A program made the position numbers and the translations under genes. From positions 11,284,001 to 11,348,000 of the forward strand of contig OX597840.1 of the NCBI GenBank assembly GCA_951406725.2: 64,000 nucleotides of DNA. The letters run 5' to 3'. The stretch comes from Octopus vulgaris (lineage: Eukaryota). Shown piece by piece: positions 5,384-63,625 of the stretch (position 1 is the first letter of the stretch; each line of letters opens with the position of its first letter). The notes under the pieces are model-generated. The model was not told the origin of the DNA, searched no databases, and saw only the letters and a list, made by a program, of their open reading frames with translations.

Positions 5384-5420
5384 CTATTGAAAAGGTTGCA
5401 AGACGCAACGAAAATTTTAG
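5384..5420 (+). ncRNA. Minimal type I hammerhead-like motif, U3/A8 core variant, in a ~200-bp repeat (5380-5575; further copies 5961-6168 and 62873-63110)
   Basis: CUA-UUGAAAA-G-GUUGC-AAGAC-GCAAC-GAAA-AU-UU-UAG: stem I CUA/UAG, 5-bp stem II, palindromic AAUU stem III. The copy at 5973-6009 has G12>A. Confidence 0.6.
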
Positions 5421-6526
5421 GACAAAATAAGAAAAAAGTGGAAATTTTACCGGTGAGTGTGTTAAATAATAAGGCACAAAAAGAAAATGACTCTCCCCAG
5501 ACAAAACAAAATATGCTTCAACACACGAACTCATATAAAGAATCTTGCAAACCAAATCCCCAAACAAAACATTTATAGTCTTGCCAGAAACTGCACAGAC
5601 AGATTTTGGTTGGACCGAAGCTTTAGCAGAAGACCCTTGCCCAAGATCCCACATGGTGGGACTCAAGCTGGAATCAAGGTTGGGGAGCACACATTGTGCC
5701 ACACAACCACAGCTGTGCACCATGTGTAATATATATATATATGGTGCTATTAAGTTACCAGGTGGTGCTATTAAGTTAGACATGGCCTGGGCCAATAATG
5801 GCCGAAACCTATCAAAGTATCAAAGTATATATATATATATATATATATATAATTAATTAATGAGGGTGAGAGAATTAGATACTAATTTAATAGTATATCT
5901 ATTCTACACCAAATATATATATATATATATATTTATTTATTTATTTATTTATTTATTTTCCACTAGAAAATACTATTGAAAAGGTTGCAAGACGCAACAA
6001 AAATTTTAGGAAAATAAAAATAAGAAAAAAGTGGAAATTTTACCGGTGAGGGTGTTACATAATAAGGCACAAAAAGAAAATGACTCTCCCCAGACACAAC
6101 AGAATATGCTTCAACACACGAACTCATATAAAGAATCTTGCAAACCAAATCCAAAAGCGAAATATAATAATTGCAAGGTTTCGGTAAATACTGTACCATT
6201 TTAAATTAAATATTTTAAACTTCCATTAAGAAATTTAGCGCAACAGAAAAAAAAAAACCCCTGCTATAATTCTTTTAATTTTTTTATGTTGTCATTTTTT
6301 TATGGTGTAAGCGACCCTGTAGCCCACCAGTGTTCTAAACATCCGATTTGACTGAAGGCTTAAAAGCTTCCAGCTGGATTTTGAACAAAAAGTTATAATA
6401 CATGAAACCACGCCGTTACAGATGAGCACAATCAATATCGGACTCTAATCAATAACTTGTATTTGAATAACGGTCATTGATCATTACCAATAGTGATCTT
6501 CCACACACATTCTCCTACACAACGTG

Positions 6527-6948
6527 CTTCTTTCAGTTTCCGTCCACCAAATCCACTCACAAGGCTTTGGTCGGCCTGAGGCTATAGTAGAAGACACTTG
6601 CCCAAGGTGTCACGCAGTGGGACTGAAACTTGAACCATGTGGTTGGTGAGTACGCTACTTACCACACAGCCACTCCTACATGTATATATATATATATATA
6701 TATATATATATATATATATATATATATATATATATATATATATATATATATATATATATATATATATATATATATATATATATATATACGACGGGCTTCT
6801 TTCAGTTTCCGTCTACCAAATCCACTCACAAGGCTTTGGTCGGCCCGAGGCTATAGTAGAAGACACTTCCCCAAGATGCCATGCAGTGGGACTGAACCCG
6901 GAACCATGTGGTTGGTAAGCAAGCTACTTACCACACAGCCACTCCTAC
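6527..6948 (-). mobile_element. Two SINE family B 5' halves separated by (TA)n
   Basis: The head sequence appears twice in reverse orientation. Confidence 0.85.
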
Positions 6949-7311
6949 AGCTCACAAAATATTATTAAACATTTGCTATGGTAAAAATTACCTTCATATT
7001 TGCAATGCAAATATCTACGAGAAATGAATGGACATCACAGCAGCCTAATTTACTTTCTGTCCTTGTAAATCCTCCACCCCTAGACTACATCTTCCCTCCA
7101 CCATCCACACCAAGGCCACCCGACAATTACAATGAAACCACCCTCCAAACACTCGCCAAGCTCTGTTCCACAGACAAGACACCTTCTTTCTCGGTCATTT
7201 CTAGTTTGACCAATATTCGACTGACCTGGCCATTATCCAGACTGAACTGACCACTAATCAAAGCTGTTCCGGGTATGCGGCCCGCGGGACGTTTTGAATG
7301 GCACGCCTAAC

Positions 7312-8355
7312 GGAGGAGTGGATGTGTGGTAAGTAGCTTACTTACTAACCACATGGTTCCGGGTTCAGTCCCACTGCGTGGCACCTTGGGCAAGTGTCTT
7401 CTACAATAGCCTCGGGCCGACCAAAGCCTCGTGAGTGGATTTGGTAGACGGAAACTGAAAGAAGCCCGTCGTATATATGTATATATATATATTCCTTTAC
7501 TACCCACAGGGGCTAAACATAGAGGGGACAAATAAGGACAGACAAAGGGATTAAGTCGATTACATCGACCCCAGTGCGAAACTGGTACTTTATTTATCGA
7601 CCCCGAACGGATGAAAGCCAAAGTCAACCTCGGCGGAATTCGAACTCATAACGTAACGACAGACGAAATACCGCTAAGCATTTCGCCCTGCGCGCTAACG
7701 TTTCTGCCAGCTCGCCACCTTATATATATATATATATATATATATATATATATATATATATATATATATGTATATATATATATATATATATATATATATA
7801 TATGTGGGGGGGGGGAAATTACCACCTGTGTCATCTCTTGTGAAAGGTAGGAGAGTCCAGTTTGCTGGACATTGTTGTAGAGCTGAAAAAGAAGTAATTT
7901 CTACTCTTCTCCTCTGGAAGCCATCTACTCGCAATACCAGAGGGCGCACACTCTCCTACCCTGATGTAATCTCCAGGGATACAGGCATCCAGCAACAGGA
8001 CCTCCGTAATGCTATGATGGACCGTGAAGTCTGGCGCAACATGGTAAATTCCATTGTCTCGACCACGGTCGAACAATGATGATGATGATGATGTGTGTGT
8101 GTGTGTGTGTGTGTGTGTGTGTGTGTGTGTGTGTGTGTTTGTGCGTCTGTGTTTGTCCCCCTAGAATTGCTTGACAACCGATGCTGGTGTGTTTATGTCC
8201 CCGTCACTTAGCGGTTCGGCAAAAGAGACCGATAGAATAAGTACTGGGTTTACAAAGAATAAGTCCCGGGGTCGATTTGCTCGACTAAAGGCGGTGCTCC
8301 AGCATGGCCGCAGTCAAATGACTGAAACAAGTAAAAGAGTAAAGAGTAAAAGAGA
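7312..8355 (+). mobile_element. SINE family B with a SINE A (7490-7720, minus) and an RTE fragment nested in its internal microsatellite
   Basis: The 5' half ends near 7470 and the 3' half resumes near 8140. Confidence 0.85.
7810..8091 (+). mobile_element. RTE-type LINE 3' end with (TGA)n tail
   Basis: [16 protein letters not shown]...LLLWKP...RGRTLSYPDVISRDTG...AMMDREVWR is typical of the RTE-clade C-terminus. A longer copy lies at 44962-45368. Confidence 0.85.
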
Positions 8356-8897
8356 GTACCTTGATTTTTTTTTTCAGTAGTGCAACCCATCTGATGATGT
8401 ATCATGTGTTATGCGGGTCACTTCTTTAAAAGGGTCCTCAATGCCTGGTTTAGATCCTTAGACATCTTGGTATCATTATCCCCACCACCACCACCACCAA
8501 AAACAACAGCAACGTCACACCCATCCCACCCAATTACCACCAGTACAACAACAACACCAAAAACACCACCAACAACATAACCATTACCTCAAACCCACCA
8601 CACTCAAACACCACCACCACCACCACAACAATCATTTTTTCACCGTAAAAAAGCAAAACAACAAAAGTATTTTCTCCCTACCCCGGGTAGATAAAAAAAA
8701 AACACATGTTTTATCAGTTAATTCATGTAAAACTATATCTGGAACTCCACACCTCTTTGTCGTGGCTGCTGTCAGCGATACACGGTTAGATCCACCCGTA
8801 TCACTCCACCCCTTTTATCTGTTGTCAGCGAGTGAGTTGACTCCCCCCGATTCCCCGACTCACAAGCAACCATTTCTCTTCTTTTTTCTTTTTTTCG

Positions 8898-9190
8898 TTT
8901 ATTATTATTATTATTATTATTATTATTATTATTATTATTATTATTATTATTATTATTATTATTATTATTATTATTATTATTATTATTATTATTATTATTA
9001 TTATTATCATTATTATTGTCATCATCATTATTATTATTATATTTATTATTATTATTATTATTATTAGTAGTATTATTGTTATTATTATTATCATTATTAT
9101 TATCATCATCATTATTATTATATTTATTATTATTATTATTATTATTATTATTATTATTATTATTATTATTATTATTATTATTATTATTAT
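8898..9190. repeat. (TTA)n microsatellite with an internally duplicated variant block
   Basis: Seen directly. Confidence 0.95.
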
Positions 9191-62025: not shown

Positions 62026-62229
62026 GTGTGCAACCTGGTAATTAAGACGTTTGGGCAACTGACTTCTACTATTGTCTCAAGCTGACCAAAGCCTTATGAA
62101 CGGATTTGGCAGACAGAATCTGATAGAAGCTCGTTGTAATTAATAAATCTCCTAGTATATTCCATCTTCCGTCTTTCATTTACCAATATACATAACGAAC
62201 ACTGTGATAGAGACCAGGTAGGTTTTATT

Positions 62230-62495
62230 ATGGCACGTAAAAAGCAGCATCCGACCGTGGCCGTTTGCCAGACTTGTCTGGCACCTGTGCGGTTGGCACG
62301 TAAAAAGCACCCACTACACTCATGGAGTGGTTGGCGTTAGGAAGGGCATCCAGCCGTAGAAACATTGCCAGATCAGACTGGGCCTGGTGCAGCCTTCTGG
62401 CTTCCCAGACCCCAGTTGCACCGTCCAACCCATGCTAGCATGGAAAGCGGACGCTAAACGAAGATGATGATGATGATGATGATGATGATGATGAT
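62230..62495 (+). mobile_element. SINE-like 3' portion with (GAT)n tail
   Basis: Carries GGCGTTAGGAAGGGCATCCAGCCGTAGAAAC, a block I recognise from RTE-associated repeats, and a simple-repeat tail. Confidence 0.65.
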
Positions 62496-62872
62496 GATAT
62501 ATATATATATATATATATATATATATATATATATATATATATATATATATATATATATATATATATATATATATATATATATATATATATATATAATATA
62601 ATAATATATCTCTGAACGAGGTATATATATCTATATATATAGGGGTAAAATATGAAAAATCAACGAAAATGCATATTGCAAATAGAAAAAGGCTATTTAT
62701 GACAGGTAACGACAAATATATACATTTAGAATGACTGAGGTAGTAATACGAGTCATAAAAGTCATTATTATGAGATGATTATAAGATGATAATAAAGTAA
62801 GAGAACAAAACAAACCAATGGTTTACGCAAAGCTATTCATCGTTTGAACATATATATATATATATATATACA

Positions 62873-63048
62873 CTGTTGTGTCTGGGGAGAGTCATTCTCT
62901 TTTAGTGCCTTATTATTTAACACACTCATCGGTAAAATTTCCACTTATTTCTTATTTTTATTTTCTAAAATTTTCGTTGGAAATTTTACCGGTGAGTGTG
63001 TTAAATAATAAGGCACTAAAAGAGAATGACTCTCCCCAGACACAACAG
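62873..63048. repeat. Palindrome, 71-bp arms and 34-bp spacer, from the 5380/5961 family
   Basis: Arms 62873-62943 and 62978-63048 with one mismatch; flanked by (TA)n. Confidence 0.93.
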
Positions 63049-63590
63049 AATATGCTTCAACACACGAACTTATATAAAGAATCTTGCAAACCAAATCCAA
63101 AAGCGAAATATATAAATATATATATATACATACATATATACATACATATATATATATACATATATATACATACATGCATACACAGACAGACACACATATA
63201 TAAATATCTGTGTGGGAGTGTGTCTTTGTGTCCCAGTTTGTCCCCCTAACACTGCTTGACAACCGGTGCTGGTGTGTTTACATCCCCCGTAACTTCACAG
63301 TTCGGCAAAAGGATCCGATGGAATAAGTACCAGGATTTAGAACGAAAAAAAGATGTCTTGGGGGTCGATTTACTCAACTAAAAATTTCTCAAGACGGTGC
63401 CCCAGCATGGCCGCAGCCTAAAGACTGAAACCAGTAAAAGACATTCTTGTATGTATGTGTGTATATATATATATATATATATGTATAAAGTTAATCCAAA
63501 CATGAAAACACAAAGAGAAAACACAACAACGCGAGGACGTGGAGCAAATATAGTATTAATGGACGCTCAAGAAAGAAGGGAAGAAGGAGG

Positions 63591-63625
63591 ATTTAACATT
63601 TCGAGCGGAGTTCTTCGTCAGAAAC
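63591..63625 (-). ncRNA. Minimal hammerhead-like motif in TA-adjacent element ~63487-63695
   Basis: GUUU-CUGACGA-A-GAAC-UCC-GCUC-GAAAU-GUU-AAAU; one mismatch in stem II. Confidence 0.6.

Follow-up and report, generated by a model that had tools for sequence, protein, structure and literature searches.

We analysed a 64,000-nucleotide (nt) stretch of Octopus vulgaris DNA, positions 11,284,001-11,348,000 of contig OX597840.1 (C27) in a 2.8-Gb assembly of 227 contigs, hereafter called the window. An earlier note on this DNA had named 14 sites with hammerhead-ribozyme-like folds in AT-rich inserts between (TA)n tracts, and the arrangement is indeed present at all 14. By type I hammerhead we mean the core C3U4G5A6N7G8A9 / G12A13A14, an A15-U16 pair, H17 and three stems. 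Ten DNA searches of the genome, each returning 144 to 3,869 candidates (which are not copy numbers), sorted the sites into ten repeat families, A to J, and the 20 best-matching loci of each search were examined. The best other copies are 93-99% identical, except in family E (78-87%). Overall, the arrangement is largely a known one, eight families having hammerheads of Penelope-like elements (PLEs) and the other two being retrozyme-like units.

Family A, a PLE with a CX4CXXC linker, comes first along the window. Its 3' end at 5379-5572 (+) holds a hammerhead at 5384-5420 with a U3-A8 core, an AAUU stem III and a predicted cut after 5417; a second copy lies at 5966-6165 (+), with a decayed hammerhead at 5973-6009. 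The 3' end of family B (Neptune-type; clades were assigned by motifs quoted in PMC8557442, without a reverse transcriptase (RT) tree) spans 24918-25117 (-), adjoins (TA)24 at 24877-24924 and carries a hammerhead at 25051-25016 with the U6 core CUGUAGA. The Hydra-type family C 3' end at 27830-28127 (-) adjoins (TA)13 and has an intact hammerhead at 28110-28028, predicted to cut after 28033. At 36468-36700 (+), the 3' end of family D (Neptune-type) contains a hammerhead (36576-36611; U3-A8 core, ACCGGU stem III) and is followed by (TA)54 at 36725. Family E, an old remnant with Hydra-type endonuclease (EN), occupies both strands of 38356-38604, where a minus copy (38470-38356) with a decayed hammerhead at 38443-38384 has an inverted partner at 38511-38604. 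The AT-rich 3' untranslated region (UTR) of Hydra-type family F, at 39358-40296 (+), includes a hammerhead-like motif at 40156-40253 with a 2-bp stem I, a long stem II and a ACGUACGU stem III. Family G, a 566-bp retrozyme-like unit lacking an open reading frame (ORF), forms an inverted pair on both strands of 52069-52740, with intact hammerheads at 52327-52266 (-) and 52394-52455 (+) and (TA)n on both sides. A further family B 3' end at 58921-59128 (+), adjoining (TA)31, has a hammerhead at 58995-59032 with the U6 core CUGUUGA and a mutated stem III. Two family H (Neptune-type) 3' ends are paired in inverted orientation at 59440-59705 (both strands), with hammerheads at 59609-59573 (-) and 59622-59658 (+), a U3-A8 core, an AGCGCU stem III and a 2-bp stem I. 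The 3' end of Hydra-type family I at 60215-60602 (-), with (TA)n on both sides, has an intact hammerhead at 60452-60362 and a predicted cut after 60368. An inverted remnant of family A at 62873-63111 (both strands), without the 5' half of the hammerhead, is additional to the sites of the earlier note. The last feature, at 63482-63694 (-) and adjoining (TA)10, is a near unit-length copy of family J, a 219-bp ORF-less retrozyme-like unit with an A6 core, whose hammerhead at 63625-63591 is decayed. The elements had been described as unrelated, which does not hold: 25016 and 58995 belong to one family (79% identical) and 63591 to a sister of it.

We counted matches with two descriptors. The strict one, a type I hammerhead with a perfect stem III palindrome, found 4 window sites, compared with a mean of 0.05-0.08 and a maximum of 2 in three sets of 100 dinucleotide shuffles; the reversed window gave 0 matches. 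The relaxed one permits an unpaired base after A9 or before G12, as also found in Hydra hammerheads of the PMC8557442 supplement, and U6, without which family B would not pass. A first version had been over-tight (1 site only), and the descriptor was relaxed after inspection of the window and of PMC8557442; a 600-kb genome sample, sixty 10-kb stretches at fixed round coordinates, therefore served as the independent test. The relaxed descriptor recovered 8 of the 14 sites (5384+, 36576+, 52394+, 52266-, 59622+, 59573-, 60362- and 28028-), against a mean of 0.10 and a maximum of 2 in 60 window shuffles, and 25016- becomes the ninth once G-U is permitted in stem III. The pair at 59570/59622 passes with a stem I of only 2 bp. 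In the sample, 26 matches fell in 17 stretches (one array accounts for 7 of them), whereas eight shuffles gave 0-7 (mean 2.5). Without any constraint on stem III, 19 of 31 real matches in window and sample together (664 kb) were perfectly palindromic, 7 of them from one tandem array, compared with 1 of 31 in ten shuffles. The stem III palindromes are thus not due to chance, as the earlier note had argued from their differing among families. A reading of all the motifs as chance matches in AT-rich, palindrome-rich repeats could appeal to a short descriptor relaxed after inspection and to the 7 matches that 600-kb shuffles can reach; nevertheless it is refuted by these controls, and by the fixed position of the motifs in PLE 3' ends, and we give it hardly any probability. 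An Rfam scan of the window contained no hammerhead family among the matches listed (the best 150 of 247), which were uninformative microRNA-like matches on simple repeats only.

Five named sites fail the relaxed descriptor. Four are decayed copies: 5973+ and 38382- carry G12 to A, the palindrome of 58995+ is broken, and 63591- has a mismatch in stem II. Their families include intact members (11, 2, 12 and 15 of 20 loci for 5973, 38382, 58995 and 63591, respectively). The fifth, 40156+, has a complete core, but its stem I is weak (2 bp), stem II is mismatched close to its base, and none of 20 copies of the family passes. By family, intact hammerheads occur in nine of ten (B counted only with U6 permitted). 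The same decay bears on whether the host has co-opted hammerheads at these loci for processing its own transcripts. The number of motifs would by itself make occasional co-option likely, but with five of 14 sites failing, four by decay, and copies diverging like ordinary repeats, it is highly improbable as an account of these loci.

The Penelope link, so far only inferred, was borne out when we followed the longest copies elsewhere in the genome. A GIY-YIG endonuclease ORF is joined to eight of the ten families, and collinear RT sequence is present in six (A, B, C, D, F and I). The window itself is free of such ORFs, as had been said: 14 natural RT/EN peptides gave low-complexity matches only. 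Four of the ORF-linked families are Hydra-type (C, E, F and I) and four Neptune/Nematis-type (A, B, D and H). The traits of the Hydra clade (CxCX5C linker, CxxC/CxH round E and N, DKT, (TA)n) are most complete in families I and F. Locus L208 of family I has an RT with YRDD, the CxCX5C linker and CxxC..E..N..CxH, and the family has (TA)n at 20 of 20 loci. Locus L320 of family F has DKT and the CxCX5C linker, and a partial repeat upstream of its ORF holds the 3' half of the motif; L320 and L322 reach the family F ORF, and L321 and L323 fall short of it. At L021, family C has an RT and a C-terminal EN with CxxC/CxH, and no CxCX5C linker was present in the family C copies examined. Hydra-type EN remnants (CxxC/CxH only) occur in 14 of 20 family E loci, with the hammerhead region downstream in 12 of 19. 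Families A, B, D and H share a CX2-5CXXC-class linker (CX4CXXC) and a CCHH-type EN, which places them with Neptune or Nematis; family A is presumably Nematis-like. Family D has a 726-aa RT-EN frame at L210. The family B 3' end lay downstream in 27 of 30 loci found by EN protein, the family H hammerhead in 17 of 19 (EN in L331, L334, L336 and L342), and the family A hammerhead end 400-840 nt downstream in 15 of 19 EN loci. A near-complete PLE beside L131 (in L206) was ruled out as the family H parent by its different 3' end, and L296 and L297 hold an ORF like that of a long interspersed element (LINE), not of a PLE. The L206 element is itself a Neptune-type PLE of another family (minus strand, ~1630-4250 on that strand; frames of 258 and 523 aa), and shortly past its ORF a U3-A8 hammerhead-like motif can be read by eye.

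The structure of the insertions is also that of EN-bearing PLEs, with 5' truncation, inverted 5'-truncated partners, a one-sided tail and partial tandems. We looked for (TA)5+ tracts no more than 30-45 nt away from the 3' end of the match, in 20 loci per family including its own copy. The counts were 20 (I), 19 (C and H), 15 (G and J), 12 (B and D), 10 (F), 4 (E) and 1 (A), compared with 3.7% for the background; those of E and F are low because the queries ended short of the true 3' end. Family A (5384/5973) is not TA-targeted. The proposal that the elements target TA microsatellites therefore applies to most families, the 5384/5973 family excepted. In the sample, 15 of 26 motifs lie at most 350 nt upstream of a (TA)6+ tract, compared with 18% expected. 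The density of (TA)6+ tracts is the same in both, with 53 in the window and 54 per 64 kb in the sample. The inverted partners fall short of the 3' end by 29-145 nt, a distance that is specific to the family, and so resemble the PLE 'tail'; an inverted 5'-truncated copy plus tail is a published PLE feature (PMC8557442). The predicted cut site is set back ~90-290 nt from the 3' end of the element. A copy starts there in 1 of 38 cases (B) and 0 of 30 (J), and this lack of a pile-up is expected if the RT crosses a religated or uncut junction. Many copies of family B (e.g. L044-L062) begin ~105 nt upstream of the predicted cut, and a second group ~74 nt; these shared starts hint at a non-autonomous subfamily or at truncation hot spots.

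Families G and J differ from the rest. The 566-bp unit of family G occurs in direct and inverted arrays, head-to-tail in L106, L298 and L299, and its own end precedes its own start in 20 of 20 loci. The family J unit forms a trimer in L291, and 17 of 30 copies begin within 12 nt of the unit start. Among the top-ranked matches, no parent ORF was found for family G, nor for family J (0 of 30 EN loci). Both are ORF-less and arranged head-to-tail, every unit holding a single type I hammerhead, as is characteristic of non-LTR (long terminal repeat) retrozymes. In four sequencing runs presumed to be RNA, contigs cover the 566-bp unit in pieces, and 2 show the end-to-start join, as tandem DNA would. 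It is likely that G and J are copied in trans by PLE enzymes. All ten families might by extension be short non-autonomous elements (retrozymes or SINE-like, after short interspersed elements) moved in trans: most copies are short, G and J have the arrays and J the recurrent starts, and the start shared by many B copies means that a non-autonomous B subfamily may exist. Eight families, however, are collinear into an endonuclease ORF with staggered 5' ends, which refutes this for those eight and leaves it very unlikely for the whole. The suggestion that the elements were mobilised in trans or heavily truncated accordingly divides, truncation applying to the eight ORF-linked families and mobilisation in trans fitting only the units at 52266/52394 and 63591.

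The analysis showed the fold, the families, the endonuclease ORFs lying upstream, the (TA)n at 3' ends, the 5'-truncated partners in inverted orientation and the head-to-tail arrangement of units. We propose, with a probability of roughly three in four, that the motifs are type I hammerheads in the 3' ends of eight PLE families and two ORF-less tandem units, which would cut RNA as dimers for copying into mostly (TA)n sites. Cleavage, circles and target choice by the endonuclease are modelled here after PMC4209133. Two hammerheads would pair via the palindromic stem III and cut as a dimer; stem III can form no hairpin alone, and palindromes of 6-9 nt are predicted to self-pair at -6 to -12 kcal/mol. 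The cleaved RNA may be circularised, and the GIY-YIG enzyme would nick the target. The RT would then begin ~90-290 nt downstream of the cut site, cross the hammerhead and usually stop early, and the outcome would be stubs of 0.2-1 kb with one hammerhead each, later decaying.

Several points weigh against this proposal. Self-cleavage is a prediction, and the RNA look-ups covered assembled contigs of presumed RNA runs. The minimal hammerheads already published show poor cleavage in vitro (PMC4209133), and among Xenopus retrozymes 8 of 9 dimers failed to cleave (10.64898/2026.07.22.740005). The AAUU stem III duplex is predicted to be unstable (+2.2), the minimum-free-energy fold of several monomers lacks the three-way junction, and stem I has only 2 bp in families F and H. 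In the one alignment tested for covariation, 92% of cells were paired and 2 of 11 pairs doubly changed, mainly through one B/J swap; the stems do vary between families, but the matches compared were selected by the descriptor. Every ORF observed is broken or partial, the Pfam matches stay below curated cut-offs (GIY-YIG E 4e-4 and 4e-3, RVT_1 E 7e-5), and 3 of 6 peptides had no Pfam match. The motifs could be real PLE parts kept as non-catalytic structures, such as an RT-binding or dimerisation signal, with no cutting in vivo. The short stem I of F and H, the U6 core of family B and the weak activity of the published minimal forms (PMC4209133) would fit such a role, and Naiad PLEs spread without canonical hammerheads (PMC8557442). 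By contrast, C3-G8 and U3-A8 are both found, N7 is unconstrained and G is avoided at H17 (62 of 64 copies in family B). Cleavage chemistry demands just such a pattern, and a purely structural role seems unlikely to us.

In family B, position 6 is U, and not the A of the type I core, in 65 of 65 distinct copies collected by BLAST. N7 is C in 28, U in 23, A in 9 and G in 5 copies, part of the C/U variation perhaps reflecting CpG decay, and H17 is A in 46, U in 16 and G in 2. Shared minor alleles at 10% or more occur in 1 of 31 columns of the core and stems versus 33 of 165 outside (Fisher p 0.02; p 0.05 at 15%), where the copies are not independent and BLAST seeding is biased towards conserved parts. 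In sister family J the architecture is the same but the core has A6, which fixes the register; an alternative register restoring A6 in family B breaks stems I and II. The family B EN query returned 16,326 candidates. The published consensus core of PLE hammerheads is CUGANGAH (PMC4209133), and a U6 core is absent from the text and supplement passages of that source that we covered. Our literature searches gave no report of one, Lunse et al. on PLE hammerhead variants may describe one, and the U6 core in all copies is possibly new. The nearest likeness is phage Bcep176, whose natural A6C hammerhead also departs from A at position 6, is slow in Mg2+ and is favoured by Mn2+ (PMC3088659, PMC7151607). 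That case is a C at one phage locus, whereas the U described here, known from sequence, is fixed throughout a large family of eukaryotic retroelements. We tentatively suggest, at somewhat less than even odds, that a successful EN-encoding Neptune-type family may use a working hammerhead with U for the near-invariant A6 (CUGUNGA), under selection across its subfamilies and numbering tens of thousands of copies. If true, U6 would be a natural variant of the catalytic core that standard CUGANGA descriptors miss, in a genome of very high hammerhead density. A fixed U6 family beside an A6 sister also offers a ready control, and makes it testable whether PLE hammerheads must cleave.

Globally, the sample gives one motif per ~25 kb net of background, or an estimated ~110,000 intact motifs in the genome (bootstrap 49,000-189,000). 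The roughly one motif per 5 kb of the earlier note is local, the window being ~3x richer in motifs than the sample. The estimate matches the largest published count that we found, up to 120,000 retrozymes in the axolotl with its tenfold larger genome, a count obtained by a different method; for metazoan PLE hammerheads, another descriptor gave 2,000-9,000 per genome (PMC4209133). Further hammerhead families, whose stem III palindromes have 8-10 nt, lie outside the window (L236, L237, L249, L261, L265, L266, L208 and L210), so that family diversity is well above ten. A classical retrozyme-like array at L211:3082-4560 (+) has five tandem units of 353-359 bp plus two inverted ones (minus strand), each with a canonical hammerhead with a 6-bp stem I, a 4-bp stem II and ACCGGU. 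L233 and L245 hold motifs like those of this array, with a U3-A8 core.

Much of this has precedents. Palindromic stem III, the U3-A8 core and inverted pairs are already published for metazoan PLEs (PMC4209133). The minimal hammerheads described there in PLE pseudo-LTRs share with ours the type I topology, the unpaired base after A9, opposite-strand pairs 100-700 bp apart, mostly single truncated copies and many families per genome; they differ in that stem III palindromes here reach 8-10 nt. Hydra-1_Obim of Octopus bimaculoides is a (TA)n-inserting, hammerhead-bearing Hydra element (PMC8557442 supplement). Our Hydra-type families resemble the clade as characterised in PMC8557442 in the C-terminal GIY-YIG without CCHH, the CxCX5C linker, DKT, CxxC and CxH round E and N, the hammerhead near the 3' end and (TA)n insertion. 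The hammerhead sequences of all four are unlike the one listed for Hydra-1_Obim, and in their ORFs (L208, L021, L320) long Asn-rich stretches separate RT from EN. Their 3' UTRs are also long, family F reaching ~5 kb versus <3 kb described (PMC8557442). Families A, B, D and H resemble the Neptune/Nematis clades in linker, C-terminal CCHH-type EN and a hammerhead in the 3' end, a placement made by motifs; as differences, family A avoids (TA)n and family B has U6. G and J share with animal non-LTR retrozymes (PMC7229834; 10.64898/2026.07.22.740005) a low GC content, the lack of an ORF, a head-to-tail arrangement of units that each hold one type I hammerhead, and an occurrence both as monomers and in short arrays; the 566 bp of family G is above the 150-450 bp first described and within the 51-972 bp reported later. 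Unlike described retrozymes, G and J, known here from DNA, have PLE-like (TA)n ends, and G has inverted partners. A study of an octopus counted 31 recently active PLE families, and its main text does not contain the word ribozyme (PMC13282606). The main value of the present result is thus one of annotation, in that many short AT-rich inserts between (TA)n tracts here are PLE ends and retrozymes, and two points go beyond the known system, the motif density and a U6 core that is fixed in one family while its sister has A6.

The family F 3' UTR contains a 762-bp duplication (L312, L318 and L319), recurrent at several neighbouring loci on C11, and window positions 27403-27650 (+) match its far 3' tail at 81%, hammerhead not included. 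A ~160-bp repeat beside TA tracts, which we take to be a SINE, is very abundant (6790-6950 in the window and many other places). Fragments at 18675-19085, 44794-45291 and 48614-49336 resemble C-terminal parts of what are presumably LINE ORFs.

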